Shown one piece after another: positions 9,756 to 31,397 of a stretch of DNA of 32,988 bases (position 1 is its first letter; every line of letters starts with the position of its first letter). Location of the stretch: positions 1-32,988 of the IMG/VR virus record IMGVR_UViG_3300020042_003425; one strand, written 5' to 3'. The position numbers were made by a program, and so were the translations under genes. Origin of the DNA: a virus. Taxonomy: Duplodnaviria; Caudoviricetes. The notes beneath the pieces were generated by a model. It made no database searches, was not told the DNA's origin, and saw nothing but the letters and a program-made list of their open reading frames with translations.

Positions 9756-11765
9756 ATGGCAGATAAAAATAGTTTGATTCAATACGTGGTTCAGAAAGTA
9801 GGGCCTGACCAATTAAAAATGATGGTGGACCAGGCCGAGCAAGAACTCAGTCAAGACCCTGATGTCACTCAGGAGGCTCTTGCTGAGTTAGAAAAGCAGC
9901 TTACTTATTTAGTTGAAAATCCGGAAACGTACCCTGAATTTGTGGTTTCTGCCGTTGAATCCGGGATGATCGATGCGGAAGATCTTCCGCAAGAATTTCA
10001 GCCTATTTTTATTGCGGTAATATTAATTGCTATATCAGAGCTTAAGAATCGTATGGCTACCCAAGGCAGCCAGATGTTTGCTAAAGGGGGTCTTGCAACT
10101 GTTGCCAATCAGTTAGCTGCAAAAGGACGCTTTGGCGACACGATGCTAGCGCACATTAATCCTCGTGAGGCTGAAGTCCTTCGCCAAATGGGAGGTTCAG
10201 GTACAATCAATCCTCATACGGGCCTTCCTGAGTTCTTTTTTAAGAAGCTTTTTAAAGCAGTTAAGAATGTGTTTAAGGCTGTTGTTAAAATAGCTGCCCC
10301 AATTGTTGCTACTGTTGTTGCAGGACCTTGGGCTGGTGCAGCGGTAGGTGCTTTGATAGGTGCTGGCGGCGGTGGCGGTTTGAAAGGGGCGTTAATCGGA
10401 GGTCTTACTGGATCGTTAGGGCCAGGAGGATTACTAGGTAACACAGCGAAAGCTTTAGGAACCGGGGTATCAAAATATTTACCTAAGCTTATTACAGATA
10501 ACATCGGTGCTCAAACATTAGGGGCCGGTTTATTAGGCGGCGCGGGTAGCGCTGCATTAGGTCAAGGTTTTTTACCGGGTGCTTTAGCAGCTGGGAGTGT
10601 GTCAGCGCTGACCCCAACTGTTACAAGTTTAACTAACAGCGCAAAAGGAATAATAGGCGGCGTAAAAGGAGTAGGAAGCAGCGCGGCCGGTTCTGGCGGA
10701 GTCTTCCCATCACAAGCTGGTGGATTAAACCAAGTAAGTAGTAATCTACTGGGATCCTCGTCTAGTGTTCCAAGAATGAGTAACGCTATTAATGCCGCTG
10801 AAGTAGGCGCTAATCCTGCGGGCTACGAGGTATATAAGAATGCTATGCAGGCTAACGCTGCTGCGGGTATTCCAGGGTTTACTAATGCGGCTGGTGCGGA
10901 GGTAGCTAAAAATGCTATGGAAGCAAACATCGCAGCGGGCATCCCAGGGTTTACTAATGCGGCTGGCGCAGAAGTAGCTAAAAATGCTATGGCGGCTAAC
11001 GCCGTTGCCGGTGTTCCAGGGTTTAGTACTAACGCGTCAAACATCGCTGCGTCAAATATAGCCGGAGGTACTGGACTAACTAGCGGTACTGATTTAATGG
11101 GTGCTACCACCATGGGAGGGGCAAATGCATCACCTGGTTTATTAATTGGCGGAGCAGCTAAAGATACTGGACTATTTGGTACTGGCATCTCTGGCAGCCA
11201 AGCGCTAATGGGGACCCTGCTTCTAGGTGGCTTAACACCGCAAGAGGGACTTAAAAAGATTGAAGAAGATCCTGCCTTGACTGCGGCACACAAAGAAGCA
11301 ATGAGCCGCGCTTTAACAAACTACACCGCTAAATACAACATGACTACCTTGCCTCAACAAGGCACCCCTGAGTATGACGACATGATGAGCAACATTAGTC
11401 AGGGTATCGGCATTACCTTTATGAACCCAACTATTACTGTTGACAATACTGGCGTTACTCAACCAATGAAACGTGGGGGAAAAGCAAAAGCTCCTGCTGG
11501 TGGATTATCTCAAATTGCTATGCTAGCAAGTGGTACAGGTTCAGGCAGAGATGATACAATTAACGCAAGATTATCAGACGGCGAATACGTGCTTGATGCT
11601 GAAACAGTGGCGCTACTTGGTAACGGTAGCACTAAGGCAGGCGCAGCAGTCCTTGACCAAATGCGCGAACAACTACGCAAACAAAAAGGTAAGGCTCTGG
11701 CAAAAGGGAAATTTTCACCTGACGCCAAATCGCCATTGGCTTACATGAAAGGTGGGTTAAAATAA
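9756..11765 (+). CDS. Internal virion / DNA ejection protein with Gly-rich membrane-type segments
   Basis: MFAKGGLA...GRFGDTMLAHINP.EA..L...GGSGTINP.TGLPEF; amphipathic KKLFKAVKNVFKAV followed by Gly-zipper hydrophobic helices; C-terminal GTGSGRDDTINARLSDGEYV motif of the kind seen at tape-measure C-termini. Confidence 0.7.
   Translation: MADKNSLIQYVVQKVGPDQLKMMVDQAEQELSQDPDVTQEALAELEKQLTYLVENPETYPEFVVSAVESGMIDAEDLPQEFQPIFIAVILIAISELKNRMATQGSQMFAKGGLATVANQLAAKGRFGDTMLAHINPREAEVLRQMGGSGTINPHTGLPEFFFKKLFKAVKNVFKAVVKIAAPIVATVVAGPWAGAAVGALIGAGGGGGLKGALIGGLTGSLGPGGLLGNTAKALGTGVSKYLPKLITDNIGAQTLGAGLLGGAGSAALGQGFLPGALAAGSVSALTPTVTSLTNSAKGIIGGVKGVGSSAAGSGGVFPSQAGGLNQVSSNLLGSSSSVPRMSNAINAAEVGANPAGYEVYKNAMQANAAAGIPGFTNAAGAEVAKNAMEANIAAGIPGFTNAAGAEVAKNAMAANAVAGVPGFSTNASNIAASNIAGGTGLTSGTDLMGATTMGGANASPGLLIGGAAKDTGLFGTGISGSQALMGTLLLGGLTPQEGLKKIEEDPALTAAHKEAMSRALTNYTAKYNMTTLPQQGTPEYDDMMSNISQGIGITFMNPTITVDNTGVTQPMKRGGKAKAPAGGLSQIAMLASGTGSGRDDTINARLSDGEYVLDAETVALLGNGSTKAGAAVLDQMREQLRKQKGKALAKGKFSPDAKSPLAYMKGGLK
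10827..11030 (+). repeat. Three tandem 72-bp (24-aa) repeats EV.KNAM.AN.AAG.PGFTNAAGA, the third incomplete
   Basis: Units start at 10827, 10899 and 10971, with near-identical DNA (aatgctatg...ccagggtttactaatgcggctgg). Confidence 0.9.
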
Positions 11766-12667
11766 TGGCAGCAACTAATTGGACCGCCGCATTATCAGGG
11801 TTATTTCAAGGCAATCCGCAGGCTGCGCCTAGCTATGCTGCAACCACATCTGACGTGCCTAAGTGGCTACAAGACTATACTGTTGACTTGTTTAGTCAGC
11901 AGCGTGCTGTCTCAGGCTTACCTTATCAATCTTACAAACTACCACGAGTAGCAGGTACCACACAGCCTACACAGCAAGCTTACCAAACGGTTCTGAACTC
12001 AGTTGGTGATTATCAACAACCGCTAGATGCTGCTATGTCTGGCACACAGAACTTAGCAAACACCAATTCGTATAGCAACGTCGCTAACTATATGAACCCG
12101 TACAACACGGCGGTGACGGATCAGATTGCTAAACTTGGTGCCCGTAACTTGACAGAGAACATACTACCTGGCGTGTCTGATCAGTTTATTCGTGCTGGTT
12201 CATTTGGTGGATCCCGTATGGGCGAGTTTGGTAACCGCGCTGTTCGTGATACTCAAGAATCGATCCTTGGTCAGCAAGCAAACGTGCTAAATACAGGCTA
12301 CACCCAAGCAATGGCAAACGCTCAGCAAGACATGACTCGTCAGCAAGGAGCTCTTTCTCAAACAGCTGAGCTTGCTAAGATGCAACAAGGTCTGGCTGCC
12401 TCAGACGCCGCCGCGCTTCAGTCTATTGGTACGGAACAACAAAATCAACAGCAAAAAGGTTTGGACATTGCTTACCAAGATTTTATCAATCAACAAAACT
12501 GGCCACAGCAGCAGATCAACAACATGTCTACTACACTTCGTGGACTACCTCCTGCAGCAATACCGACTACTCAAAACCAGACTGGTGCTACCACGCAGTT
12601 TAGTCCAAGTCCATTGTCACAAGTAGCGTCTGCTTACTTTACATCTAAAGCGTTAGGACAACCGTAA
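11765..12667 (+). CDS. DNA ejection / pilot protein
   Basis: Gln-rich and helical; YMNPY...V and AGSFGGSR motifs typical of podovirus DNA-transfer proteins; TAATG coupling. Confidence 0.7.
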   Translation: MAATNWTAALSGLFQGNPQAAPSYAATTSDVPKWLQDYTVDLFSQQRAVSGLPYQSYKLPRVAGTTQPTQQAYQTVLNSVGDYQQPLDAAMSGTQNLANTNSYSNVANYMNPYNTAVTDQIAKLGARNLTENILPGVSDQFIRAGSFGGSRMGEFGNRAVRDTQESILGQQANVLNTGYTQAMANAQQDMTRQQGALSQTAELAKMQQGLAASDAAALQSIGTEQQNQQQKGLDIAYQDFINQQNWPQQQINNMSTTLRGLPPAAIPTTQNQTGATTQFSPSPLSQVASAYFTSKALGQP

Positions 12668-15030
12668 TGGCTAATCAAATCATGACCCCACTTGAAGAAC
12701 AAGTGATGAAGGACTACGGCAAGTACATGTACAAAGGCGTGTCCTTACCTGCTAATTACAAGATGACAGGACCTTTACCTTTTGGTGTTAGCATGGTAGA
12801 CAACCAACTGCGTGTTGATCCTTCAAGTAAATTATACGGCACTCAAGGTGATATGTTTGCTGCTATTCAAAATGCTAATGCTCCTAAGTCTACTGGTCGT
12901 TTTAATATGGGGAGTCTTAGCAATTTTAATTTGTCTAATATAACGCAACCTTCTTTTCCTAATAACGCTCCTTTTTCATTAAATAAACCTAGAGGCTTTG
13001 GAATGGGAGTGGGCGGATTTAATAATCTTGGCGCTAACATAATGGGCAACATGGGTAGAATGACTGGGTTTAATACTTTTGGCGCTCTTGGTAACCGTGG
13101 TAAACCTGCTCCTGTACAAAACGTAGCTAAAGAATTTGAAGTGTCCCGAACTCTTGACGAAGCTTTGCAAGAATACTTACGCCGTCAGCCGGGTATGACA
13201 CTTGAGCAGCTAAAAGCGCAGATTGAACAAAATCGCCAAGCGATAGCTGGCATGCCTACTACTGCACCTCAAGCCCTTGGTAAACCTATGTCTATTGGGG
13301 AACTAAACGCCAAGTACTACCAAGGTGGAAACCCTTACGGTAATACATTTGGTCAAGGCTACGCTGAGGGCGGTGAAGTTAAAGGCTACGCTCGTGGTAC
13401 AGAAGATGGCCCGTTTTATGACGAGACAGATCCTAATTTTGCTGCACAAGTTCAAAATAATATGAGCAAAAACCCGTTGTATGCTCAACGCGAAATAGCG
13501 GCTCCGGCTCCTGTTGCTAGACCTTCTGCGGTAGAGGAGGCCCTGGCACAACGACGCGCAATTATGGCCGACTTAAATAAGGCCCTTACGGCAGCCCCTG
13601 TTACTACATCAGGAATGACAGATTCTGAAAGAAACTGGCGTCTAGCGGCGGCGTTTGCTAAGCCGGGTAAGACAGGCGCCTTTGGCGAAGGCTTAGGTTA
13701 TGCGGCAGAGACAATGGCCGACGTAGCGGCAGAAAAACGTAAAGAGGCTAAAGAGCAAGCGGCTATGGGGTTACAACGTTTACAGGCCCGCTCTGAGTTG
13801 GCTAACCAACAGTACGCACTAGCCCGCGAAGGTGAGATGCAAGAGCTACTTAAAAAGTACGTTAGCAAGGGCCAAGGGGTGACAGACAAAGTAACCTCTG
13901 GTGCTACTTCACAAAGCGGCGGCGCAAGTGACGGTGTCCCAGAGGATGTTAAGGCCCTAATCTTAGCGCAACCGACAGAAAAAGCTGTGGCAACCATTAT
14001 TGAGATTGCTAAAGAAAATAACAAGCCCTCTGACTTAATTAAGGGTGTTAGTTTCTTGGTTAAAAACGGTGCTATTTCGCAAGAGCAAGGTAACGCAATT
14101 GTTCAAGAAAACTTACAGGGTAAGTTAGAGCAGCTTGATGTACAAGTTCCTGAATTAGGTGGGACCTTTAAACTTACTGGTCCAGAGGCTCGTTCGTATT
14201 ATGCCGACGGTACTCTTCCTACTCGTTTAGGCGGTAAAGCTAAAACAACGGCAGCCACAAGCCCTGATACTTCAGTGGCCCCAGCTAAGCCTGTTGCGGC
14301 ACCTGTGACGCAAGAGCAAATGAAGGCCAAAGAGACTGGGATGGTTGAGCAGGCTAAGAAAGACATTGACGCTAGTGACGCTTTATTGTCTCAAAAATCT
14401 TTCGCTAAGCAGCAAAAAGATGCCGCTAAGCTAATCCTAGGTTACGCTAAAACTAGCCCTAAATCATTCGGTGTTATCGCTGATCCAAACTGGTCAAACG
14501 CTGTCGCTAATCTTTTAGAGACGGGCATTAATACGCCATTTGGTAGTCTAGGTTTGGCAGTAGAGGAACCGATTGCCAAGCTTAAACTAACTGGCCCAGA
14601 GGCTACTGTTCGTCAAATGGCGGCGGCCCCTATTGCGTTGATTGAGGTTGGTTACCGTAAGTTGTACCTAAAAGGTGAGGGCGCTGTGTCTAACATGGAA
14701 GGGGCCTTGACTAAGTACATTGGTCCACAACTTTCTGACAACGCTAAGACAGTCCAGCTTAAAGCAGGTATGATTACTATTGGTGCAGAGAAACAAGAAA
14801 AAATAGTTGAGGCCTTTGAGAAGTACAAAGAAGCTCACCCAGAGGCTGGCCCACGTTCATTCTATCAAACACCAGAGTTCAAACGGATCAGGGACGCGTA
14901 CGAAACTAAGTACCGTGCTTTTGCGAAGGCAAACGGTATCCCTGTTGATGAAGAGGTTGCCTCAAGTGGCCCATCTAAAGGCGGAAATTTACTAGATTCT
15001 TTGCAAAAAGATCCACGTTGGAATAAATAA
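12667..15030 (+). CDS. Internal virion / ejection protein (low-complexity N-part, helical body)
   Basis: Position; YAEGGEVKGYARGT motif; AFAKPGKTGAFGEGLG; GAVSNME near the C-terminus. Confidence 0.65.
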   Translation: MANQIMTPLEEQVMKDYGKYMYKGVSLPANYKMTGPLPFGVSMVDNQLRVDPSSKLYGTQGDMFAAIQNANAPKSTGRFNMGSLSNFNLSNITQPSFPNNAPFSLNKPRGFGMGVGGFNNLGANIMGNMGRMTGFNTFGALGNRGKPAPVQNVAKEFEVSRTLDEALQEYLRRQPGMTLEQLKAQIEQNRQAIAGMPTTAPQALGKPMSIGELNAKYYQGGNPYGNTFGQGYAEGGEVKGYARGTEDGPFYDETDPNFAAQVQNNMSKNPLYAQREIAAPAPVARPSAVEEALAQRRAIMADLNKALTAAPVTTSGMTDSERNWRLAAAFAKPGKTGAFGEGLGYAAETMADVAAEKRKEAKEQAAMGLQRLQARSELANQQYALAREGEMQELLKKYVSKGQGVTDKVTSGATSQSGGASDGVPEDVKALILAQPTEKAVATIIEIAKENNKPSDLIKGVSFLVKNGAISQEQGNAIVQENLQGKLEQLDVQVPELGGTFKLTGPEARSYYADGTLPTRLGGKAKTTAATSPDTSVAPAKPVAAPVTQEQMKAKETGMVEQAKKDIDASDALLSQKSFAKQQKDAAKLILGYAKTSPKSFGVIADPNWSNAVANLLETGINTPFGSLGLAVEEPIAKLKLTGPEATVRQMAAAPIALIEVGYRKLYLKGEGAVSNMEGALTKYIGPQLSDNAKTVQLKAGMITIGAEKQEKIVEAFEKYKEAHPEAGPRSFYQTPEFKRIRDAYETKYRAFAKANGIPVDEEVASSGPSKGGNLLDSLQKDPRWNK

Positions 15031-15041
15031 GGAGCGCTGCT

Positions 15042-18000
15042 GTGGCAGATCAAAAAGTACAAGCTGGAACAGTCATTAATGCTCCTGAGGTAGAAGTTAA
15101 AGCCGATCCAAAGTTATCTGACGAGCAAATTCTTATTGCCAGAAAGATCCACGACGCTGCCGTTAAGTATGGCGTTGATCCGGAGTACGCTTTACGTATA
15201 GGCCACATTGAAAATCGATACAACACTGGGCCATCTCCGGCCGGCGCTATTGGACCGATGCAAATAATGCCCGGCACCGCTAAAGACCTTAAGATTGACC
15301 CTAATAACATTGATCAAAATATTGACGGTGGCGTTAGGCTTCTTAAGCAGCACATGGATAAATACAAAAATCCATACATTGCGGGGATTGCGTATAACGC
15401 TGGCCCAGGCGTGGCGGATAAATTCTTAGAAACAAATGACTCCTCTGTGTTGCCTGACGAGACCCTTAATTACGTTAAAATGCTGCACGAGAATTACACC
15501 CCGGGTGATCAAATTGACACCGGTGAAATTCCTGTTATAACAGAACTTAAAGTTGAAGAGACCCCTGGCGAATTTAAACGCAATGATTTAGGTGATCAAA
15601 TAGGTGCGGGTGCGGGTGCCGGCATTGGTATTGCCGCCGGTCGGTACTCTGATAAACAAGTTGAGGCTGCTCAAAAGGCAGAGGCCAAGGGTGAGGGCGC
15701 CGCTAAAAAAATCACAGAGAAACAAATTGCCTTAGAAGAAAAACAAAAGGCTCTATCTGGCCGCGCTACTAATCAACAAAAGATTATTGAGTCAGCCAAT
15801 AAAGAGTTAGAGACGCTAGCTAAACAGCACGAAGAGGCGCAAAAACGTTTAGCAAAAGCCACTGATAATGCACGCCGTTTTAGCGTGTTAGAAGAAAACG
15901 TAAAGACCACCCCTGGTGGCGTCACGCAAGAGGGCGGCATTGGATCTGGTGCAATGCGTCACTCTAACACTATGGGTGAGATCCATGAGGCTAACGTTGT
16001 TCGTAAAGGAACAGAGGCCGCTGGCTCTGGCTACTCTCAAAAGTCTCGCTTGATTGTCCCTGATAAGTACGCCAGTGCTGAGATCTACAATCCTGAACAA
16101 AAGGCAGCCCAGGCAGAGTTTGCTAAGGCACAAAGAGAGGCAGCGGATTTAGATAAAAAGTTAGCTGACGCTCAAAAACGTGTAGACGCTGAGTCTAATC
16201 GTTTACGTAACATTACAGAAAAAGGACCCTCTGGGCTTACTTCTGCAGAGACACAGCTTGAAATTGCTAAACGCAATTACGCAGAGGCTAAGGTTAAACA
16301 GCCAGGCAAATTTTTAAAAGTTATGCGTAACATTAGCGCCATCCCTGGTGCAAACGTTTTACCTGGCGCTTTTGCTGGATTAGACGCTGCAGAGGCTTAT
16401 GAACGCTTTAAACAAGGCGACATTACTGGCGGCATTATTAGCGGTACCGGCGCCGTAGGCGGTATGTTATCAATGTTGCCTCCGGTTACACCGGTTACGG
16501 CCGTGTTAAAAGGTGTAGGCACTGGTATGACAATGGCCGCGCCCGCGATGAATTATTTCCGTGATAAGGGTAACAAGGCCCCTGAGGGTGTTCATTTTGC
16601 AGAGGGCGGCGCAGTAAAAAAGTTTGGCGCGGGCGGTAAGGTTGTTGCTATCGCTGCAGAGAAAGCTAAAAAATTTCTTCCGACTGTCCGTAGCCGTGAG
16701 CGCGTAGCGTTCCCTGAGATCTACCGTGATCCGCGTATCATTGTTGGCGAGTCTGCCGGCCGCGTATCAAAAGAGAGCCCATTGCTTAGTCAATTATTTG
16801 GCGTAGACCGTTACGATCTTGATGCAATGACAAGAGACATGGGCCATGATTTAGCCGCACCGTATTACATAGCAACTAGGCCGCCTGAGTATTTAGGTGG
16901 CTTAAAAGGTAAGGCTAACACGCAGCGCATGCAAGATATTTTAGAGATTGCGCAGGCAGACCCTCGTTTTGCAGGATCTTACGGTTGGTTTCAGTCAGAG
17001 CCTTTAAGACAGCGCTTTATCGAACTTAACCCTAACGGCGCACGTGACTTTGATCGGTTTAGTCAATTAGGCGCGGCACTGTCTCCATCGACAGCGGTGC
17101 CTAAAGAGATTGAACGCTCAAGCGTCGCTTATTTAATGGATAAAGAGGGGCGCCTTTCAGACTTTTTAGATCCACGTAATATGCCTAAAGGTTATGGCCA
17201 CGCTTACCACACGACCGCTCATAATGCGGGCGTACGTAACATGATTGAGCGTGGTGATTTTAGACCAGTTAAATTAAAAGACGCGCCTAAAACACGCGTG
17301 TACTATGGCTCACGTACTGGCGAAAACTTAGACGTACCGACAGCCGACGCTCACTTTGTACGCGGTATTGGTTTGGCTGACTTACGCCCATCAACGAAGG
17401 CTGACGACTTTGGCAGTAGTATCTCAGCGACAGAGTTAGACCCGGTTGCTCAGTGGTACCGCTCTAAAGTGGCTGAGGCTATGGACATGCGTGCCTCACC
17501 AGCGCAGGCTTTACAGTGGAACGCGATGGGCACATCTACCGGCGTTGAGACAGAATTAGGGGTCCCTTTCTTAGAGTTAGTTGCGCGTCGTATCGGTCAG
17601 GTGGCTGAAAAAGAGGGCGTTAAACCTACTAAAGTGCGTGACGAATTTATTCGTGGTGAGCGTCACTTAGCGGAGGGAGGCCTTGTAAAAGGTTACGCCG
17701 AGGGAGACTACGTTGATTTAAGTAACAGCTCCCGCACAATGCGTGGGGAAGAACGTAACGAGCGTCCTTATGTTAGTCGTCCAGCTTGGATGGAAGGGCT
17801 AAACAATGACGCGCCGGTTAGAGCAATGCGAAAGGCGTCTTCAGTCGCAGGGACTGGTTTAGATTATTTAAAACGCGGACTAAATCAATTTAGGCCCATT
17901 GATCAAGCGTATTTAATCCCTAGCATGGAAGCAAACCTTGGTGATATTTTGTTAGGCGGCGCCTCTGACACATTAAAACAATGGAGTAAACCAGGAGAGG

Positions 18001-18842
18001 GCCCTATTACAGGCGGCCAGTATTATGTAAACCCCGTAACTGGTGAGGGAAGCTTTACTCCGGTAGAGCCGGACATTATGGGGCTCGCTAACGTAGGTAG
18101 CTTATACGGCATGGGTTTATCTAAACCTGTCACTGCTCCGTTTAAAATGCTGTCTCAAAAGTACGGTCAAAAAGCAGCGAGTAAAATGGCTAGTCCTTAC
18201 GCAATGGTTGAGGCAACGTCGCCTGAGTTATTGCAAGACACTTACCGTATGCGTGGCACCGGTGACATGGCAAACGATCCGCTTGGTTTATCAATGTCCG
18301 ACCTACGCGCTAACACAGCGCTAGAACGTGCAGGTCTAAGCAAGTACGACGTCCAACCTGGACAGGGTGCCTGGGGCGGTGGCGGCGAGAGTGAATTTAA
18401 TCGCGGCTACTCTATTAAGTTACCACGTGGCAACATGAAAAAATCAGAGGGATCGTTAGCGCAGTTTGGTAGCGACACTGATCAGATGATGATGTCGGCT
18501 GTTAAATTTGTGCCTCAAAAATCATTCGCTAAAAGTACAGCGATTGAAGTTAAAGGCGTAACCGGGAACGACATTGTTAGACTAAATAAAAAACTAGGTG
18601 ATGAGTTTGTGATTCAACATCGCCCACAAACTAACTCGGCCGTGATTTTTAATTACACAGACAAGCCACGTTATATGGGCGACCTTGAAGAGGCTGTTAA
18701 TAAGATTGTTCCTAACGGTAGAGTGTCCCCTGGTACGTACGAATCAAATGTTATTGATAGTTCGCAGTACGCAAGTAAGGGCGCTAAACCAAAAGGCCGT
18801 AAAACAATTGAGGTTGAACAAAAAATTATAAATCGTAAATAG
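15042..18842 (+). CDS. Multi-module internal virion protein: SLT lytic transglycosylase, coiled coil, Gly-rich hairpin and two cargo modules
   Basis: SLT motifs IENRYN (catalytic Glu), SPAGAIGPMQIMPGTA, NIDGGVRLL and AYNAGPG; RBS AGGAG with GTG start; FAEGG and LAEGG doublets at 16596 and 17667. Confidence 0.8.
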   Translation: MADQKVQAGTVINAPEVEVKADPKLSDEQILIARKIHDAAVKYGVDPEYALRIGHIENRYNTGPSPAGAIGPMQIMPGTAKDLKIDPNNIDQNIDGGVRLLKQHMDKYKNPYIAGIAYNAGPGVADKFLETNDSSVLPDETLNYVKMLHENYTPGDQIDTGEIPVITELKVEETPGEFKRNDLGDQIGAGAGAGIGIAAGRYSDKQVEAAQKAEAKGEGAAKKITEKQIALEEKQKALSGRATNQQKIIESANKELETLAKQHEEAQKRLAKATDNARRFSVLEENVKTTPGGVTQEGGIGSGAMRHSNTMGEIHEANVVRKGTEAAGSGYSQKSRLIVPDKYASAEIYNPEQKAAQAEFAKAQREAADLDKKLADAQKRVDAESNRLRNITEKGPSGLTSAETQLEIAKRNYAEAKVKQPGKFLKVMRNISAIPGANVLPGAFAGLDAAEAYERFKQGDITGGIISGTGAVGGMLSMLPPVTPVTAVLKGVGTGMTMAAPAMNYFRDKGNKAPEGVHFAEGGAVKKFGAGGKVVAIAAEKAKKFLPTVRSRERVAFPEIYRDPRIIVGESAGRVSKESPLLSQLFGVDRYDLDAMTRDMGHDLAAPYYIATRPPEYLGGLKGKANTQRMQDILEIAQADPRFAGSYGWFQSEPLRQRFIELNPNGARDFDRFSQLGAALSPSTAVPKEIERSSVAYLMDKEGRLSDFLDPRNMPKGYGHAYHTTAHNAGVRNMIERGDFRPVKLKDAPKTRVYYGSRTGENLDVPTADAHFVRGIGLADLRPSTKADDFGSSISATELDPVAQWYRSKVAEAMDMRASPAQALQWNAMGTSTGVETELGVPFLELVARRIGQVAEKEGVKPTKVRDEFIRGERHLAEGGLVKGYAEGDYVDLSNSSRTMRGEERNERPYVSRPAWMEGLNNDAPVRAMRKASSVAGTGLDYLKRGLNQFRPIDQAYLIPSMEANLGDILLGGASDTLKQWSKPGEGPITGGQYYVNPVTGEGSFTPVEPDIMGLANVGSLYGMGLSKPVTAPFKMLSQKYGQKAASKMASPYAMVEATSPELLQDTYRMRGTGDMANDPLGLSMSDLRANTALERAGLSKYDVQPGQGAWGGGGESEFNRGYSIKLPRGNMKKSEGSLAQFGSDTDQMMMSAVKFVPQKSFAKSTAIEVKGVTGNDIVRLNKKLGDEFVIQHRPQTNSAVIFNYTDKPRYMGDLEEAVNKIVPNGRVSPGTYESNVIDSSQYASKGAKPKGRKTIEVEQKIINRK

Positions 18843-19113
18843 TAAGTCTTGCCTCAAGTATCCTGTACCAACTTTCTGGTACGGGATACTTTCTCCCTTC
18901 CTCGTAATCATAGATCGCGTACCAAGAAGTTTTTAAATACTCGGCCGCCTCTTTCTGTGTAAACCCGTTCCGTACTCTTAAACAATACAATCTATAGTCT
19001 TTTTGTAGCTTTTTATTTGTTTTACCCTCACTTTTCACGCTAAAAAACCATAAAATGCCCAGCAAGGCACTTTTTAAGCAACGTAGCGCGTTTTTATATG
19101 TTTTTAATACCAC
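18826..19113 (-). CDS. XRE/Cro-like HTH transcriptional regulator (start probably GTG at 19113)
   Basis: LRVRNGFTQKEAAEYLKTSWYAIYDYEEGRK.P HTH signature; AAGGAGG RBS spaced correctly for the GTG at 19113; converges on the late operon with a 17-bp overlap. Confidence 0.8.
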   Translation of the reverse strand: MVLKTYKNALRCLKSALLGILWFFSVKSEGKTNKKLQKDYRLYCLRVRNGFTQKEAAEYLKTSWYAIYDYEEGRKYPVPESWYRILEARLTIYDL

Positions 19114-19150
19114 GGCCTTCACCTCCTTAAAATAATTTGCGTATCATTAA

Positions 19151-19366
19151 TTACCAAGATTTACAAACACAATCAACCGGACATTGAACAATGTATTTTG
19201 TTTGCGCTAAAACATCTTTAACAGTATCGCCCGCAATTGCATGAAGTCCATCGACAGAATATCCATCATTTAACAATACTTCGTATCCTTCCCCATCTAC
19301 TTTATCGAGCATCGATGAATACACTTCTTTATTACTTTCGATTAATTTTAAAATTAATTTGCTCAA
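19151..19366 (-). CDS. Small hypothetical early protein
   Basis: Directly downstream of a consensus leftward promoter and a TAGAAAGG RBS; TTG start. Confidence 0.65.
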   Translation of the reverse strand: MSKLILKLIESNKEVYSSMLDKVDGEGYEVLLNDGYSVDGLHAIAGDTVKDVLAQTKYIVQCPVDCVCKSW

Positions 19367-19409
19367 ATCTTTATACCTTTCTAAAAGTTATGGTTTTACC
19401 ACATAGAGA

Positions 19410-19438
19410 ATTATAGACCATAAATAAACAGTTGTCAA
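19410..19438 (-). promoter_or_regulatory. Consensus sigma70 promoter (leftward)
   Basis: Minus strand TTGACA (19438-19433), 17-bp spacer, TATAAT (19415-19410). Confidence 0.88.
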
Positions 19439-19469
19439 CACTTCCATGACGCGGTGACTAGAGTCTCTG

Positions 19470-19731
19470 AAAAGGTAACTTCAAGTTACCATGAACTTAC
19501 CCATGAACTTACCGCTGTAAGCTAGACGTGACAAGGTTCTACGTTAAAAGGTAAGCTCGGTAAGTTCATTTTTAAAATTTAGAAAAAAAATTATTTTTTG
19601 TTTTTTAAGAACCTATATAGATGAACTTACCTTTTTCATTTTATAAAAAATAAAATAATGGTTTCAAAATCTTGCGATTGAAAGTTAGGTAAGTTTGTTG
19701 GTAAGTTTGCGGTAACTTGAAGTTACCTTTT
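19470..19731. repeat. Putative replication origin: terminal palindromes, iterons and AT-rich tracts
   Basis: Exact 21-bp inverted repeat at 19470-19490 and 19711-19731, each containing the palindrome GGTAACTT(C/G)AAGTTACC; ATGAACTTACC at 19491, 19503, 19621 and inverted at 19559; GGTAAGTTTG at 19688 and 19700; A/T tracts at 19570-19620 and 19632-19670. Confidence 0.75.
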
Positions 19732-19835
19732 TTGATGATTCTTTAGACGAAAAAATGAGGGGTAGAGCGCCCCTCGAGCGAGATAAAACAAAAATGAGCC
19801 CCCACTATATACAAAAGTTTTAAAAAACACAAGCG

Positions 19836-19864
19836 TTGACAACAATTGTTTGGCGCTGTAGAAT
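19836..19864 (+). promoter_or_regulatory. Near-consensus sigma70 promoter driving the replication operon
   Basis: TTGACA (19836-19841), 17 bp, TAGAAT (19859-19864). Confidence 0.85.
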
Positions 19865-19893
19865 ACACCCATAACTTAGAAAGTGAGAAATAA

Positions 19894-21381
19894 ATGTTTA
19901 AGACAAAACCGTTTGAGCACCAGCTGGAAGCTTTACGCCTGATGGAAGATAAACGCGCCTACGCTTTATTAATGGAGCAAGGGACGGGTAAGACTAAGTG
20001 CCTAATCGATGACGCCGCACGCCTCTATGGTAAGGGGCAGATTAACGCGCTCGTAGTTATTGCCCCTAATGGTGTTCACCGTAACTGGATCATTAATGAG
20101 ATCCCGGCGCACTTACCTGACTGGGCCCATAGAAAATGTGCCTGGTGGGCCAGCAACATGAAGGTCGCTGAAAAGAAAGCGTACGACGCGTTATTTGTTA
20201 CGGAAGATTGTTTGCGCGTGTTTACTATGAACATTGAGGCCCTCGCAACTAAAAAAGGTTTAGAGGCTTTAACTAAGCTGCTTAAAACATTTAACTCTTA
20301 CTTAGTCGTGGATGAGTCTAGCAAGATTAAGAATCACCAGGCTGTGCGTACAAAAAATTTGTTAAAGACGGCATCTTTTGCTAAGTACCGACGTATTGCT
20401 ACAGGGACACCGGTAACACAGTCACCGTTAGATGTGTACACACAGTTTGCTTTTCTTGATGAGGAGATCATTAACATCCCTAGCTACTTTGTGTTTAAGG
20501 CCCGCTACGCTGAGCTGGTGGATGAAAGCAGTCACATTATGCGTCACATTATGCAACGCTCTGGGGCCAGACGTGCGCCACAATTGGTGGCCAAAGATAA
20601 AAGCGGAAAACCGTTGTATAAAAATATGGAAGAGCTTCAGACTAAAATAGCTAAGTACTCTTACCGCGTGCTTAAAAAAGACTGCTTGGACCTACCTGCT
20701 AAGTTATACCAGCGTCGTTATTTTGAATTGTCTGACGAGCAAGTTCGATTGTATAAACAAATCGTCGATGACTTAAGGATAGATTTTGCTGATGGTGAGA
20801 CTGTGACAATGTCAAAACTGACTGCGGTTTTGCGTTTGCAACAAATTACGTCTGGTTTTGTGCCTAACGCTGACGGCACACTAATGGAAATTTGCGAATT
20901 AGACAAAAATCCGCGTATTCAGGCCTTGGCTGAGGAGCTAGAAGAGGTGACTGGTAAGGTCATTATTTGGGCCAGGTTTACTAAAGACATTAAGAACATT
21001 TTAGAATTTTTAAACAAGACATACGGGCCGCAGTGTGCAGTAGCGTATTATGGTGCGGTAGATGATGATACCCGGGCGGCTAACGTAAAAGCTTTCCAGG
21101 AGAATCCAGAGGCCAGGTTCTTTATTGGTAACCAGCAGGCTGGCGGTACAGGGTTAACATTAACTGCAGCGAGTACGGTGATCTATTATTCTAATGACTT
21201 TAATTTAGAAAACAGGTTACAATCCGAAGACCGGGCGCACCGTATTGGTCAGAAAAATAATGTGACTTACGTTGACATTGAGGCAGTAAGTACTGTAGAC
21301 ACCAGAATTATTAACGCGCTACGTACAAAGAAAGACGTGGCATCACTGATTACTAAAGACCCGTGGACGGAGTGGATTTGA
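19894..21381 (+). CDS. SNF2-family (SF2) helicase/ATPase
   Basis: MEQGTGKT (Walker A), VDESSKIKN (motif II), TGTP, GGTGLTL, QSEDRAHRIGQ (motif VI). Confidence 0.93.
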   Translation: MFKTKPFEHQLEALRLMEDKRAYALLMEQGTGKTKCLIDDAARLYGKGQINALVVIAPNGVHRNWIINEIPAHLPDWAHRKCAWWASNMKVAEKKAYDALFVTEDCLRVFTMNIEALATKKGLEALTKLLKTFNSYLVVDESSKIKNHQAVRTKNLLKTASFAKYRRIATGTPVTQSPLDVYTQFAFLDEEIINIPSYFVFKARYAELVDESSHIMRHIMQRSGARRAPQLVAKDKSGKPLYKNMEELQTKIAKYSYRVLKKDCLDLPAKLYQRRYFELSDEQVRLYKQIVDDLRIDFADGETVTMSKLTAVLRLQQITSGFVPNADGTLMEICELDKNPRIQALAEELEEVTGKVIIWARFTKDIKNILEFLNKTYGPQCAVAYYGAVDDDTRAANVKAFQENPEARFFIGNQQAGGTGLTLTAASTVIYYSNDFNLENRLQSEDRAHRIGQKNNVTYVDIEAVSTVDTRIINALRTKKDVASLITKDPWTEWI

Positions 21382-23194: not shown

Positions 23195-23196
23195 AA

Positions 23197-23275
23197 ACGT
23201 GGCGTAGCTGAAACTGCGCATCGGTCCTTAAAACGGACGCCGGATACCGTAACCGGCCCTTATATCTTATAACGT
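23197..23275 (+). ncRNA. Candidate structured RNA element (three consecutive hairpins) between SSB and primase
   Basis: GCGTAG/CTGCGC (23202-23219), GTCC/GGAC (23224-23238), GCCGG/CCGGC (23239-23257); possible ACGT/ACGT closing stem. Confidence 0.4.
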
Positions 23276-23292
23276 CTGCGAGAAATACAATA

Positions 23293-26348: not shown

Positions 26349-26352
26349 AGTG

Positions 26353-26380
26353 TTGACATTTATTTCCTGTCCTGTATAAT
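26353..26380 (+). promoter_or_regulatory. Consensus sigma70 promoter, repeated promoter-leader cassette copy 1
   Basis: TTGACA (26353-26358), 16 bp, TATAAT (26375-26380); followed by TTACATGGTCGATT and TAGAAAGAGGAGAAAG. Confidence 0.85.
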
Positions 26381-26424
26381 AGTTACATGGTCGATTAAGA
26401 CCTAACTAGAAAGAGGAGAAAGAC

Positions 26425-26715
26425 ATGACAACAACAGCACAAATCGTAGCACAACGTTTAGTAGAGATCCACGCAGCTAAGGCTATTCTTGAAGAGCAAT
26501 ACGAGGCAGCTAAGAAAGAATTGTTGGCCCTTGGTGTTCAAGAGGTAGCGTTAGAGTTAGCGACTGTTAAAGTAACAGAGGGTATCCGCGGTACTTTAGA
26601 CAGCAAGGCAGTGGTTGCAACGCTTGGTCAATCATGGGTTGACGATCACACTAACTTAACGGCTTACAAGCAAGTTCGCGTAACATACAAAGCTGCAGCT
26701 AGAAAGGTGGCGTAA
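26425..26715 (+). CDS. Hypothetical early protein (coiled-coil N-terminus)
   Basis: Strong promoter and GAGGAG RBS. Confidence 0.75.
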   Translation: MTTTAQIVAQRLVEIHAAKAILEEQYEAAKKELLALGVQEVALELATVKVTEGIRGTLDSKAVVATLGQSWVDDHTNLTAYKQVRVTYKAAARKVA

Positions 26716-26716
26716 G

Positions 26717-27079
26717 ATGACAAATTTAAACTTGTGGTTACTGGATGGTGAAGCCTTAGTTAAGTACTACCATCCACAGACGGAAAACGAGGCCGTGTTG
26801 TTTAACGCTCTCAAAACACTGCTCCAAGATAAAGATTGGAAAGAGACGGAGATTGATGACGAGATCTATAATCTCAACGAGGAGATTGAAAAGCTGACCG
26901 ATGAAAATCACAATCTTGATTCGCAGCTTGATAAGTACAAAGATTTTTTTGGTTATATCTCTGCAGCGTACGACAAGGTTGACGGTACCTGGCCTAAGTG
27001 CGAGATTGATAACGACAACTGGACCCAAGCTATTTATGATCACATAGTGAATAACCCACTAAAAACCGATGAGGGCTGA
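26717..27079 (+). CDS. Hypothetical acidic coiled-coil protein
   Basis: AAGGTGG upstream; packed tightly in the operon. Confidence 0.7.
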   Translation: MTNLNLWLLDGEALVKYYHPQTENEAVLFNALKTLLQDKDWKETEIDDEIYNLNEEIEKLTDENHNLDSQLDKYKDFFGYISAAYDKVDGTWPKCEIDNDNWTQAIYDHIVNNPLKTDEG

Positions 27080-27275
27080 TCCCCTCATTCCAGGTAAGGC
27101 TTACCGCGTCCGCCACGGCAAGATTGTGGTGGACGTTATTGCGTCCAACCCTTGTGACGCAATTTTAATTATCGCTAAAATGAAAGGACTGATTGATGAA
27201 TATTCTGGAAGAGGCGGAGATGATGATTTACGGGGACCGGGAAAAGACGTATGGCCACCCGGCAGTGAACCTTGA
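27069..27275 (+). CDS. Small hypothetical protein
   Basis: Fills the gap between neighbours; its 3' end overlaps the DUF6378 gene. Confidence 0.5.
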   Translation: MRADPLIPGKAYRVRHGKIVVDVIASNPCDAILIIAKMKGLIDEYSGRGGDDDLRGPGKDVWPPGSEP

Positions 27276-27486
27276 GCGCATCGCACACTTGTGGCAGGCT
27301 TACTTGGTTGCCGCTATTCAAAGCAAAGACGAGTTTGAATTTTCCGCAGAGAACGTGGCCTGGATGATGGTGCTGGTAAAGATGGCACGTCAGATGAACA
27401 AAAGTAAACGCGACAACCTAATTGACGCGGCTGGTTATATTGCACTAATTGAAAGGATTGAAGATGGTAGCAAAGAGAGCAACTAA
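27196..27486 (+). CDS. DUF6378-like protein (all-alpha nucleotide pyrophosphohydrolase-related)
   Basis: ILEEA...IYGDR...YG.P..N..RIA.LW..YL, VA.MM.L.K.AR, DN.ID.AGY. Confidence 0.82.
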   Translation: MNILEEAEMMIYGDREKTYGHPAVNLERIAHLWQAYLVAAIQSKDEFEFSAENVAWMMVLVKMARQMNKSKRDNLIDAAGYIALIERIEDGSKESN

Positions 27487-27676
27487 ACGTAGCAAGGGCG
27501 GTACACCTTATCCACAGTGGGCATGGTGGATCCCGGGGGAGTGTGTGGTTGAGTTGATTAGACGGGGACACTTCCCCACTACATTAATTGTAAAGATGCC
27601 TGACAATCGCGAGATTGAAATTGATGAGAACGATCTAGAACAAGAGAGCAGGTTTAAATGGGTTTCCCCAACTTAA
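27464..27676 (+). CDS. Small hypothetical protein (start probably ATG 27464)
   Basis: GAAAGGA RBS; GHFPTT motif. Confidence 0.6.
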   Translation: MVAKRATKRSKGGTPYPQWAWWIPGECVVELIRRGHFPTTLIVKMPDNREIEIDENDLEQESRFKWVSPT

Positions 27677-29568
27677 AGAGCGCAAAGTTTATTGCCATTG
27701 ATACTGAAACCTTTGACCCGGAGCTGCTAGATAATGGCCCGGGCTGGGGTAGAGGTGTCGGGCACATTGTAGGTATATCGGCGGCCGTTGATGGTGAGAG
27801 CTGGTACTTTCCCATGAGGCATGAAGGCGGGGGCAACATGCCGATTGAGAATGTTCTTGCCTGGGCCGCCGATAATATCTCTGACACCCCTGGTGTACCA
27901 AAGATATTTGCTAACGCTCAGTATGATATTGGCTGGCTAAAACAGGAGGGCATCCCTGTCTCTGGCCGCGTACACGATGTGCAGCTGGCTGAGCCGTTAC
28001 TGAATGAGCACAGCTTTAGCTACTCTTTGGACTCGATTGCCAACAAGTACCTGGGCAAAGGCAAGATCCAAGATGACATGTACGACAAGCTCAAGGCACA
28101 ATTTGGTGGACCCAAGGGGCGTAAGCAGGCCGGCAATATTTGGCGGGCGCACGCTGACTTGGTGACAGAGTACGCCAAGGCTGACGCGTCATTACTGATT
28201 GAGATACTGCCTAAGCAGCTGGCGCTGTTAAAAGAGCAGGAGCTTATGAGTGTCTATGATCTAGAGTGTGAGCTGGTGCACCTGCTGATTGATATGCGCA
28301 TGCGGGGCGTTCGTGTTGATGTTGAGAAGGCCGAGCGCGTGTACAAAGATTTTAGTAACCAGGTGGATCAGATGCAGCGTGAGCTTGGTGACGTTGAGAT
28401 TGCACGGGCGTCATCTATCGCGGCGTACTGTGACAAGAAGGGAATTAAATACGGCACCACCGCTACAGGGAAGCCACAGTTTGTTGGATCCTGGCTGCGT
28501 GAGCATATCCCTCAGATCGCTGATATTCGTCGCCTGACGAAGGCCAAGGATACTTTTATCAAGGGTTATATTTTAGACAAGCACATTGGTGGGCGCGTTC
28601 ATGGGCAGTTTAATCAGCTACGGTCTGATGACTATGGTACGGTCTCTGGGCGATTAAGCGCCAGCGGACCTAACCTACAGAATATTCCGTCACGCGATGA
28701 GGAGATTGGGCCGCTAGTGAGGTCAATGTTTTTGCCGGACGAGGGTGAGATTATTTGCAGCCAGGATTGGTCGCAGATTGAGTTTCGGATGTTTGTACAC
28801 TACGCAAAGGACCAAGATTTAATAAACGCTTACTCAATAGAGGGCACTGACTTTCACAGTGTGGTGGCTGAGCTATTCGGGAATATGATACCACGTAAGA
28901 TTATTAAAAACTTTAACTTTATGCTGCTGTATGGTGGTGGTGTGAATAAATTGGCCGTGATGTTGGCGGATAACTTAACGCTGGATGAGGCTAACACGCT
29001 GCTAGATAAGCTGATGAATGACATGCCTGAGATTGGAATTAATCCACAGGATGATCTGTACTTACGCCTGGCTAAGGTATTGTTTGAGGCCTACAAGATT
29101 AAGTTTCCGGCAGCAAAGCGGTTGGCGGATCTTTCGTCACGTACGGCTAACGAGCGAGGCTTTGTGAAGACACTACTGGGCCGTCGTGCTAGGTTTGATC
29201 TGTGGGTGCCGAGTAAGTGGAGCAGCGAGGCAAAGACGCCGCTGCCTTACGATGAGGCGGTAATTGCTTATGGTCACGGTGTATCCCGATCAGGGACACA
29301 CAAGACGCTAAACAGCATCCTCCAAGGATCGGCGGCGGATGTTATGAAGACGGCGATGGTAAAGATGGTACGAGCCGGTGTGACTGACGTGCTTGGGCCG
29401 CCACTATTGACGGTGCACGATGAGCTAGTGTGGTCAGCGCCTGACACTAAGGAGGCAAAAGAGGCCCTGGATCAGGCTAAGTGGATTATGTGTAATTGTA
29501 TGCCAAACCTACGTGTGCCACTAATGGTAGACGATGAGCGCGGCACTAACTGGGGGAACGTTAAATGA
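27658..29568 (+). CDS. Family A DNA polymerase with 3'-5' exonuclease and no 5'-3' exonuclease
   Basis: Exo DTET, NAQYD, YAKAD; SGRLS...PNLQNIP; motif A DWSQIEFR; motif B RKIIKNFNFMLLYG; motif C VHDEL. Confidence 0.95.
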   Translation: MGFPNLKSAKFIAIDTETFDPELLDNGPGWGRGVGHIVGISAAVDGESWYFPMRHEGGGNMPIENVLAWAADNISDTPGVPKIFANAQYDIGWLKQEGIPVSGRVHDVQLAEPLLNEHSFSYSLDSIANKYLGKGKIQDDMYDKLKAQFGGPKGRKQAGNIWRAHADLVTEYAKADASLLIEILPKQLALLKEQELMSVYDLECELVHLLIDMRMRGVRVDVEKAERVYKDFSNQVDQMQRELGDVEIARASSIAAYCDKKGIKYGTTATGKPQFVGSWLREHIPQIADIRRLTKAKDTFIKGYILDKHIGGRVHGQFNQLRSDDYGTVSGRLSASGPNLQNIPSRDEEIGPLVRSMFLPDEGEIICSQDWSQIEFRMFVHYAKDQDLINAYSIEGTDFHSVVAELFGNMIPRKIIKNFNFMLLYGGGVNKLAVMLADNLTLDEANTLLDKLMNDMPEIGINPQDDLYLRLAKVLFEAYKIKFPAAKRLADLSSRTANERGFVKTLLGRRARFDLWVPSKWSSEAKTPLPYDEAVIAYGHGVSRSGTHKTLNSILQGSAADVMKTAMVKMVRAGVTDVLGPPLLTVHDELVWSAPDTKEAKEALDQAKWIMCNCMPNLRVPLMVDDERGTNWGNVK

Positions 29569-29780
29569 CTTTTAAAGACACAGAGCGCAGTTTTCATTTT
29601 GAGACGGCGATTAGTTTTACTAGGTTTAAACCTAAAATGATGGAGGCAGTCAAGATGGTGGTGCTGCACGATTTTACTTACGCAGCCGCTGGCCGCAAGT
29701 ATGAAATATCACGGCAGTCTGTCCACAAGGCAGTTAAAAGCTTTTATAAGACTTGTCAACACTTGAGTATTCCTATATAA
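29565..29780 (+). CDS. Small HTH DNA-binding protein (TrfB/KorA-like)
   Basis: AVKMVVLHDFTYAAAGRKYEISRQSVHKAV HTH pattern; ATGA coupling. Confidence 0.7.
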   Translation: MTFKDTERSFHFETAISFTRFKPKMMEAVKMVVLHDFTYAAAGRKYEISRQSVHKAVKSFYKTCQHLSIPI

Positions 29781-29781
29781 T
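29753..29781 (+). promoter_or_regulatory. Sigma70-type promoter for the deacetylase cassette
   Basis: TTGTCA (29753-29758), 17 bp, TATAAT (29776-29781); TAGAAAGGA RBS before ATG 29813. Confidence 0.75.
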
Positions 29782-29812
29782 ACTTGGCTCAGAAAGTTAG
29801 AAAGGATTAGCC

Positions 29813-30757
29813 ATGACAATTAAAGTATTTTATAACGATGATTTATCTATCACCAGCAAGAGCCCGTACCCGATCCCTACGGAACGTAAGGCCGCGGCTT
29901 TTGTTAAGGCCCTAGGGTGGGACAAAGATATTATCTATCATGGCCTTGTTGAGTACTACGAGACATTTGATGTGGGCACCGAGGCGTACGTTGAGTTTAA
30001 CTTGCGCCGCGTTCATAGTAAGTACTACTTTGAGAACGCCAAACCTGGTTGGGGCCAACGCCGTAATGCGCTAGCGCACAACACTATTTTATTTAAGGCC
30101 GTCAATCACGCGCAGCTAACGCGCGGCGTTGCGTTTGCGCCAGTCTCAGGGTTTCACCACGCCGGGTACGATTACGGCTGGGGCTTCTGTACCTTTAACG
30201 GCCTGGTTGCTGCCGCGTTAGAGCTCCAGGGGAGGGTGCTCATCTTAGACGGTGATCAGCATGAGGGTGACGGCTCTATTGACATCATTGATCGTCTAGA
30301 TTTGTCTGACAGGATCCACAATCACTCTATCGAATCCTGGGACGACATCCCTGACTTCGAGGGCTACGATCACATTATCTACCAGGCCGGCGCAGACTCG
30401 CACTATTTAGACGGCGGCTACTTAAATGATGAGACCTGGGTCAAGCGTGATCAGCTTGTGTTTCAACAAGCAAAGGAGCATAATGTGCCAATTACTGTGA
30501 CCTTCGCTGGTGGATACTCGGCGCTTGGTAAGGTCGTGGACTTACACTTAAGCACGTATTGGACGGCGACAGAGGTATACTATGGACGTGAGTTTTTGGC
30601 AGAAATTAGGCGCGAGATTGCTCTCAACGGCGGAGAAAGAACCTGGGATCTTTCAGCTTCCACGCAACTTGCGCTCTACGGAGAGCTTGCCCGAGATGGT
30701 GGAGCTGGGACACGGGGAGAGTTCCATCGACACTCTGAACAAGGGCTACATCATTAA
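29813..30757 (+). CDS. Zn-dependent histone-deacetylase-family (HDAC/AcuC, class IV-like) deacetylase
   Basis: GFHHA (His pair), GFCTFN, LDGDQHEGDG (Zn ligands D and H), YQAGAD (Zn ligand D), AGGY (catalytic Tyr); the last ~58 codons overlap the next gene. Confidence 0.92.
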   Translation: MTIKVFYNDDLSITSKSPYPIPTERKAAAFVKALGWDKDIIYHGLVEYYETFDVGTEAYVEFNLRRVHSKYYFENAKPGWGQRRNALAHNTILFKAVNHAQLTRGVAFAPVSGFHHAGYDYGWGFCTFNGLVAAALELQGRVLILDGDQHEGDGSIDIIDRLDLSDRIHNHSIESWDDIPDFEGYDHIIYQAGADSHYLDGGYLNDETWVKRDQLVFQQAKEHNVPITVTFAGGYSALGKVVDLHLSTYWTATEVYYGREFLAEIRREIALNGGERTWDLSASTQLALYGELARDGGAGTRGEFHRHSEQGLHH

Positions 30758-31397
30758 CAACCGGTTTAATAATTTTAAAAAGTGGGCCGACCAACAGTGG
30801 GACCCACGTTTAATTAATAAATACGAGAACGCAATAGTAGACCTTAATTTACCTATCTCGGTGGTTGACGCAATGAACGCTAGAGGCGGCGCAGTGCCTG
30901 CCTATTTTCGCGTGTACGAAGACATTGCTAACCGTGGTGGCCACAATGTGTCAGAGGGTCTGACACCTATTAATGCAAGCCGCCGTACGTCTACAATGCT
31001 GTCTTACGGTTTACGAGACCCTGATCGACTAAAACACATTGTTATGTCACCTGACCAGGGAATTGATCCGGTGTACTTCCAAAGTATGACCCCCGAGGGT
31101 AAGATTGGTATGCTAGCCAGTCGTGAGTTAGAAAACGTACGTCAACACGCGCCGGCAGAGTTAATGATGGGCGTAGCGAGCCCGCAAGATATTCCGCTGT
31201 TTGCTAAATATGTACGCGGCACTGTTAAGCCTCAAAGCTTTACTGATCCGCGTTCCGCTATTGGTGAGTCTACCTTACGCCGTGGCGTGTTACTTGATGC
31301 GCTATCAAGTGGCAAGCAAGCCCCAGCTAGGACGCTAGAGAAATCATTTTACGCTCGGGGAGGCTTAGCACAAGCTTGTGATTACATGCACAAATAA
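30582..31397 (+). CDS. Putative GNAT-like acetyltransferase with a C-terminal YARGGLA motif shared with the virion proteins
   Basis: GAGG RBS; ISVVDAMNARGGAVPAY...IANRGG.NVSEGLTPINASRR fits the GNAT beta4-loop-alpha3-beta5-alpha4 pattern. The ORF looks solid; the function is inferred by eye. Confidence 0.55.
   Translation: MDVSFWQKLGARLLSTAEKEPGIFQLPRNLRSTESLPEMVELGHGESSIDTLNKGYIINNRFNNFKKWADQQWDPRLINKYENAIVDLNLPISVVDAMNARGGAVPAYFRVYEDIANRGGHNVSEGLTPINASRRTSTMLSYGLRDPDRLKHIVMSPDQGIDPVYFQSMTPEGKIGMLASRELENVRQHAPAELMMGVASPQDIPLFAKYVRGTVKPQSFTDPRSAIGESTLRRGVLLDALSSGKQAPARTLEKSFYARGGLAQACDYMHK

Follow-up and report, generated by a model that had tools for sequence, protein, structure and literature searches.

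A short Ala-x-Gly-Gly motif in phage ejection proteins as a candidate tag for head loading and cleavage

How does a short-tailed phage pick the proteins that it carries in its head and injects, and how does it release them again? The question is raised by IMG/VR record IMGVR_UViG_3300020042_003425, one 33-kb virus record (completeness estimate 56%) whose full length of 32,988 nucleotides is the window analysed here. A motif of a few residues recurs in its ejection proteins and in one distant accessory protein. Our reading, to which we assign a probability of roughly 0.55, is that [F/Y/L/M/K/R]-Ala-x-Gly-Gly-x-Val/Leu is a tag which grips cargo in the head and is then cut before its Ala, freeing the cargo. 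Judged from the sequences, the motif is probably a recognition site cut just before Ala, and a role in holding cargo in the head is slightly favoured; that the module reading the motif is itself an acidic-residue protease is a tentative assignment at somewhat below even odds.

The initial annotation had listed seven motif sites, all of which were found in frame in long open reading frames (ORFs) of the + strand:

10074 (M; F at 10077), + strand, MFAKGGLA, in the 669-aa ORF 9756-11765
11466, + strand, MKRGGK, in the 669-aa ORF 9756-11765
11742, + strand, YMKGGLK*, in the 669-aa ORF 9756-11765
13360 and 13387, + strand, pair YAEGGEV-KG-YARGT, in the 787-aa ORF 12667-15030
16596 and 16623, + strand, pair FAEGGAV-KK-FGAGGKV, in the 1266-aa ORF 15042-18842
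17667 and 17694, + strand, pair LAEGGLV-KG-YAEGDYV, in the 1266-aa ORF 15042-18842
31350, + strand, YARGGLA, in the 271-aa ORF 30582-31397

A site absent from that list, NARGGAV (30876-30896), lies inside the 271-aa protein, and xARGGAV is kept in 9 of 12 homologs. The motif profile is Φ-A-x-G-G-x-V, two copies frequently following each other in tandem at a period of 9 residues, as in the three pairs of the window. Since the copies use different synonymous codons, they are not recent DNA repeats. Over the 34 ORFs of the window [FYL]AxGG occurs 5 times against 1.44 expected (5 of 500 shuffles reach 5), and [FYLM][AK]xGG 6 times against 2.5 (17 of 500 shuffles). Window ORFs for fibre, lysis and replication proteins contain neither pattern, as had been noted.

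The excess in the window alone is modest and the pattern post hoc. Such weak significance would suit a generic Gly-rich linker, or a DNA-binding repeat in small basic proteins, spread by recombination and having no specific reader. As the excess was modest and post hoc, the earlier pattern was tested unchanged on relatives, using 112 loci ordered around the ortholog of the 669-aa protein (dereplicated at 90%) and, for protein categories, 12 near-complete contigs of relatives (completeness 79-100%; pattern [FYLM][AK]xGG). Across the loci the motif was found 121 times at the position of the 669-aa ortholog (29.7 expected) and 62 times at the third ejection gene position, +2 (12.7 expected; 46 of 81 proteins carry it), and these ratios overstate significance because orthologs are not independent. 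The five genes upstream of the 669-aa ortholog had 26 occurrences when pooled (20.9 expected), and the second ejection gene position was depleted (4 versus 23.5 expected, 95 proteins).

In the 12 relatives the motif is enriched in variable proteins of the terminase-portal interval (17 versus 2.0 expected; 9 of 12 proteins), which are mostly unrelated to one another, and in small basic proteins (18 versus 1.7; 10 of 65 proteins), accompanied by the ejection classes EJ1 (10 versus 3.2) and EJ3 (7 versus 1.9). Shell, portal, tail, terminase and GroES proteins (4 versus 4.1; 110 proteins), replication proteins (2 versus 3.1; 59 proteins) and all remaining ORFs (21 versus 18.4; 663 proteins) show no comparable excess. 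The enrichment concerns ejection, terminase-portal and small basic proteins; shell, portal and tail proteins are at background. Exact spacing matters: seven altered control patterns, with residues shifted or swapped, stayed near background in the terminase-portal set (the largest being 5 versus 3.6 and 16 versus 14.0), and [FYLM]xGG gave 16 versus 14.0 but [FYLM][AK]xGG 17 versus 2.1. This speaks against a generic linker, which we consider very improbable even with the tandem KKGG repeats of the K/R-rich small proteins on its side. Some basic proteins are built mostly from motif repeats in tandem, with 9, 6 and 5 copies in L043 1625-2974, G004 3042-3470 and L036 1515-1859, respectively; these could possibly be cut into basic peptides inside the head.

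The position of the motif within proteins is informative, starting with the distant accessory gene:

30582-31397, + strand, accessory protein of 271 aa with the C-terminal tag FYARGGLA (31350) and the internal NARGGAV (30876)

A C-terminal YA[RK]GG is present in 12 of 12 homologs of this protein, 5 of which end two residues past GG and 7 within three. Likewise, in 7 of 12 terminase-portal proteins the motif lies no more than 30 residues from the C-terminus (0.48 expected). As all 12 homologs of the 271-aa protein end in the motif, it is also a terminal tag and not merely a seam between protein parts; terminal positions are the main support for an address function, and their conservation is a further point against a generic linker. 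Tags located 2-3 residues from the end, as in 7 of the 12 homologs, would gain little from a cut. They fit an alternative of docking only, with the tag acting as a structural strand of the module described below and bare copies plugging into the portal-bound module or assembling together with it, uncut in podophages. We regard this as unlikely, for reasons that come with the tape measures. The 271-aa protein has no family match and no related loci were returned for it; a longer fused form was not found either, which is weak evidence. Its gene is overlapped by 176 bases by a histone-deacetylase-family gene (PF00850, 29813-30757).

Seams are seen in the ejection proteins that follow the 669-aa protein:

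11765-12667, + strand, second ejection protein, 300 aa, motif-free (phrog_4287 'DNA ejection protein', E 8.4e-15)
12667-15030, + strand, third ejection protein, 787 aa, with the tandem motif pair 13360/13387 between leader and body
15042-18842, + strand, fourth ejection protein, 1266 aa, with an SLT transglycosylase part (PF01464)

Orthologs of the 787-aa protein keep the motif pair and its 9-residue period. The 1266-aa protein is ordered as SLT part, motif pair 16596/16623, first passenger, motif pair 17667/17694, second passenger, and a 411-aa homolog which has no passengers stops ahead of the first motif. Neither passenger has a Pfam match or anything similar in the 12 relatives. In relatives, motifs stand at the borders of SLT, DUF6973 and PcfJ-like parts or passengers; SLT, PcfJ and DUF6973 domains occur in 4 of 12 scanned proteins of relatives, and the 1266-aa protein has SLT only.

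Seam positions in polyproteins, together with the depletion in the second ejection protein (4 versus 23.5), which fits avoidance of unwanted cuts, would also be explained if the motif served for cutting alone, by a distinct protease of phage or host, without a loading role, and cargo entered the head otherwise. We find this rather unlikely: tags that are conserved on stand-alone proteins and 2-3 residues short of a C-terminus are not seams, and the head region of phage DSL-LC04, one of the close annotated relatives, has no annotated prohead protease (no search aimed at such a protease was made, and the window has no head genes). A single host protease is hard to reconcile with the use of the same motif in phages of Proteobacteria, Actinobacteria and Bacteroidota.

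A candidate reader of the tag is a module of about 50 residues with an Asp and a Glu, which the motif opens both in the 669-aa protein and in tape measures:

9756-11765, + strand, first ejection protein, 669 aa, its role inferred from the position between the nozzle and phrog_4287 genes
10077-10235, + strand, FAKGG (F108) and N-module GRxGDTxLAH..E..NPxTGLPEF (D128, H133, E138; alignment A2)
11466-11690, + strand, MKRGG (M571) and C-module G.G.D.I.A.LSDGE.V (D600, E610), a tape-measure-type module
11742-11765, + strand, variant C-terminal tag YMKGGLK*

The protein consists of an acidic leader, a motif with the N-module, a hydrophobic/Gly-Ala-rich middle, a motif with the C-module and the C-terminal tag. 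Among 120 homologs the motif precedes the N-module in 64 of the 70 that have one, is found 12-45 aa ahead of LSDGEY in 118, and Y[MLF][KR]GG occurs within the last 12 aa in 101. D600 and E610 are invariant in 16 of 16 sequences of alignment A1, and this is the only invariance free of retrieval circularity; that of PEFFFKKLF in A2 and of the A4/A6 core is partly circular, as these words were retrieval patterns. Homology between the N- and C-modules is plausible by eye (D-x4-H/R-x4-E) at a profile-profile score below 5%.

Directly after the N-module (10233-10330) is a basic amphipathic stretch, FFFKKLFKAVKNVFKAVVK, which leads into residues 171-190, the sole strongly hydrophobic segment of the protein; together they may form its membrane-entering end. 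Several homologs have E[FY]KGG just after the N-module. In Methylophilales phage Venkman (L040 18345-19310) the N-module appears by eye to be joined via EYKGGGG to a body resembling the second type of ejection protein, and the ejection-protein orthologs of L043 18282-21443 have a C-module in duplicate and unusual stretches rich in Cys.

The initial annotation had also noted a resemblance to tape-measure C-termini whose downstream part recurs in the 669-aa protein, and profile searches agree. The C-module matches profile A6 of the tape-measure AxGG..SDSIPAMLSDGE module with E 7.5e-11 (hhalign of A6 versus A4, 99.8%), and its sequence matches 8zdo (E 5e-12) and 8rk3 (E 0.002), which are the Douge gp16 and JBD30 gp46 matches. 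A tape-measure-type copy of the module matches 1,180 phage records, and the module profile 30,569 clusters among 1.84 billion representatives. At the top of the matches stand tape measures 2,000-7,900 aa long, in which as many as 11 copies lie between SLT, M23, NlpC/P60 and lysozyme domains. Several of them, including P0121, P0122 and P0123, have 5,000-7,900 aa and 8-11 module copies and greatly exceed the length that a ruler needs; these giant tape-measure-like proteins look like polyproteins.

Among 572 module copies in the top 150 of the 30,569 profile matches, the motif is upstream in 531, which is partly built into the profile, and a second motif is downstream in 499, outside the profile and against a background of about 10%. 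The residue before Ala varies among F, K, Y, R and L, Arg or Lys being common there. Modules flanked on both sides, separating enzymes, and a permissive residue in front of a fixed A-x-G-G are difficult for docking only. A further family, GExGPExVxP, has the motif upstream in 99 of 122 matches chosen without it, 77 of them at exactly 20 aa.

Characterised phages provide anchors for a cut before Ala. The T5 tape measure pb2 is cut after R1127, as mapped by proteomics and intact mass according to the text available from that publication (PMC10038345). The sequence at this point is VPR|AEGGMM, so the mapped cut falls just before the motif Ala, ahead of A-E-G-G as in the window motif, and a small acidic module follows in both cases. 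A cut exactly before Ala argues against docking only, and conservation of the motif at a mapped cut against a generic linker. The T5 segment belongs to the GExGPExVxP family (E 1.8e-8). It differs from the window in being located in a siphophage tail lumen, having one site and a GExGPE-type module; hhalign gives 19.7% between the GExGPE and window modules over the motif only, and 0.65% to the N-module.

Lambda gpH loses about 14 kDa, and the available part of a 2025 paper states the site and catalyst as unknown (PMC12617516). A cut at FHF|ATGG (733/734) would release 12.5 kDa, a predicted piece similar in size to the reported one, and a second motif follows at Y779|ATGG. The two motifs flank an HRGEFV module, to which the tape-measure profile gives a weak match (iE 0.002, searching a set of 11 sequences).

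The crassvirus crAss001 offers a parallel for the portal. In the accessible text on its structure, gp45 residues 425-552 form a domain that is bound to the portal wing in 12 copies, and a further resolved part of gp45 lies 420 Å away (PMC10172136). The domain begins with the Ala of RNWN|AFGG (residue 425), and its end directly precedes SMF|AYGG (PDB 7qog, by sequence). Further motifs are at 206, 260, 329 and 370, AxGG totals 8 against 1.3 expected, and the motif at the domain start is kept in both relatives examined. Like the 669-aa protein, gp45 is encoded by the first gene past the nozzle/muzzle gene and has a transmembrane stretch, many AxGG and, in its portal-bound domain, a GEVV core. A domain that starts with the motif and is a folded portal-bound unit speaks for docking. 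Docking is also close to the interpretation of the JBD30 authors, who, in the text available, describe the module as a predicted anchoring hook and guess a cut at 1066 (PMC11445458); the motif would place the cut before A1020. The accessible part of the Douge paper makes no mention of cleavage.

Under the reading of a tag that is gripped and then cut, the module, present in two forms in the 669-aa protein, would sit at the portal like the gp45 domain. The first ejection protein would be anchored there, its module binding its own tag in cis and, in trans, gripping the bare tags on further cargo proteins. Cuts would then strip leaders, split polyproteins and release tethered cargo for ejection. 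The predicted pieces would be 12.2, 44.9 and 10.0 kDa for the 669-aa protein and 25.2 and 58.2 kDa for the 787-aa protein, and the 1266-aa protein would be split into the transglycosylase and two passengers (55.4, 38.5 and 41.4 kDa).

A wider proposal is more doubtful. One self-processing module of about 50 residues and the ΦAxGGxV tag might form a cut-and-load system common to siphophage tape measures, crassvirus cargo protein 1 and the ejection proteins of podophages. The module could then be the enzyme that cuts lambda gpH (F733|A734) and T5 pb2 and chops giant tape measures and cargo polyproteins into pieces fit for injection; it could explain why gp45 is present at the portal as well as in the tail, and a C-terminal tag of 7 residues would suffice for head loading of any protein.

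A number of observations count against the proposed tag and its reader. T5 provides the sole mapped cut backing the site, and the homology of its module body to the window scores low. In the available text its authors read the segment as a muralytic metallopeptidase motif and leave the protease unnamed, and the reference list includes a title on host involvement in the pb2 cut (PMC10038345), which would suit a cut site only. For crAss001, the accessible text does not mention cleavage of gp45 (PMC10172136), and a model starting at the motif can reflect order and disorder without a cut. None of four profiles matched gp45, and neither its sequence nor a fold search with the strandless monomer models linked it significantly to the window modules; PF25725 (crAss_CARG1) gave 0 matches to the window at E<=10, and an Atlas feature score of 0.84 linking the window to crAss_CARG1 is a lead only. 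Nor is the motif a universal cargo tag there, as gp46 and gp49 lack it and gp47 and gp50 have loose ones only; crAss001 differs in this respect, its polymerase cargo being devoid of clear motifs.

On the side of the motif itself, the fourth ejection gene position is at background in relatives (16 versus 14.0 expected), counts over orthologs lack independence, and AxGG was outside the top seven patterns of an unbiased k-mer screen dominated by family-conserved words, which also counts in favour of a generic linker. On the side of the module, comparing the C-module, N-module, GExGPE and crAss forms profile against profile gives 20% (over the motif only) or below 5%, their homology being plausible by eye, and a protease as small as the module would be very small indeed. 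Modelled as monomers, the C-module of the window (pLDDT 68) and one tape-measure module (70) have helices and no strands, and these strandless models match no solved fold (Foldseek in PDB); being confident nonetheless, they suggest that partners are needed, which favours docking. A wide VIA fold search with the C-module model gave Z<=3.7, and all matches in the viral fold library were uncharacterised relatives from phages. A complex prediction with two C-module copies and two motif peptides (score 0.02, mark 0.32) is evidence neither way.

Cargo tags coupled to cleavage are a known kind, T4 being an example. The T4 capsid-targeting sequence (CTS) is an N-terminal signal carried by unrelated internal proteins; gp21, a dedicated prohead protease which also cuts the capsid protein, cleaves it after Glu. 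The window tag is similar in being a short signal common to unrelated, likely internal proteins and probably linked to cleavage. It differs in being N-terminal, internal or C-terminal and in its absence from capsid, portal and scaffold. The T4 CTS/gp21 model was rejected for the window: no Glu precedes the inferred cut, Ala is preceded by F/Y/L/M/K/R, and the motif is also internal and C-terminal. Of the portable tag suggested in the initial annotation, the tag itself is retained, in view of its likely head-internal carriers, the 12 of 12 C-termini and the T5 pb2 cut; the T4 rule is not, and no prohead protease able to read the tag was found, with no search aimed at one. The first ejection protein contains a small module that is the likelier reader.

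Two other processing types were rejected as well. Hint/intein processing relies on a Hint domain and has Cys or Ser at the cleavage point; in the window Ala follows the inferred cut and no Hint match was found. Adenovirus-type sites have [MIL]-x-G-G spacing and are cut after GG, whereas [FYLM]xGG is at background (16 versus 14.0) and the T5 cut precedes Ala. Phage polyvalent proteins are closer in kind, being large, variable, multi-domain and predicted to be packaged, injected and self-processed; they differ in that a zincin-like MPTase has been proposed to do the processing, and the accessible text of Iyer et al. 2017 contains neither 'GG motif' nor 'glycine' (PMC5512222).

The genome setting agrees with a podophage. 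The window contains fibre and lysis genes, a podophage adaptor, a nozzle, the four large genes and a Pam3-like replication block; terminase, portal and capsid genes are outside this 56%-complete sequence. Two genes ahead of the ejection block define the type:

5929-6573, + strand, head-tail adaptor of the SU10 adaptor family, which marks a podophage (PF24175, E 2.8e-30; phrog_2941)
7628-9472, + strand, tail nozzle/stabilisation protein, motif-free (phrog_3287, E 1.2e-27; clusters with an annotated 'stabilization protein')

No tape-measure Pfam or PHROG domain of a long-tail ruler was found in the window, the context being podophage adaptor, nozzle and phrog_4287. A podophage is short-tailed, and its ejection proteins are likely carried inside the head and injected; the tagged proteins are inferred from gene position and family to be head-internal. 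Besides DSL-LC04, close annotated relatives are Caulobacter phage RW/GB2A and a Manatee Spring phage. An AT-rich segment of about 1 kb without a long ORF (18843-19893; GC 0.345 in 19001-20000) separates the ejection and replication blocks, and a GroES-like gene is located between the portal and scaffold genes in L044 (6593-7045) and, as equivalents, in most relatives.

We found no paper joining the T5, lambda and crAss anchors via the motif, in a literature coverage that left out most subscription papers. The individual anchors are already published; new here are the test of protein categories across whole genomes, the evidence for terminal tags, and the coincidences in crAss and lambda. The lambda gpH cut has been open since 1974, and the motif makes exact predictions for laboratory phages: F733|A734 in lambda, the acidic residues of the T5 module and N424|A425 in crAss001. 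The tape-measure cut of lambda and T5 and the loading of podophage cargo thereby become directly testable. If true, the proposed tag would show how a very large uncultured group of podophages, without a recognised head protease, picks and frees its injected proteins; cargo would become predictable from sequence, and the tag might serve as a minimal packaging tag.

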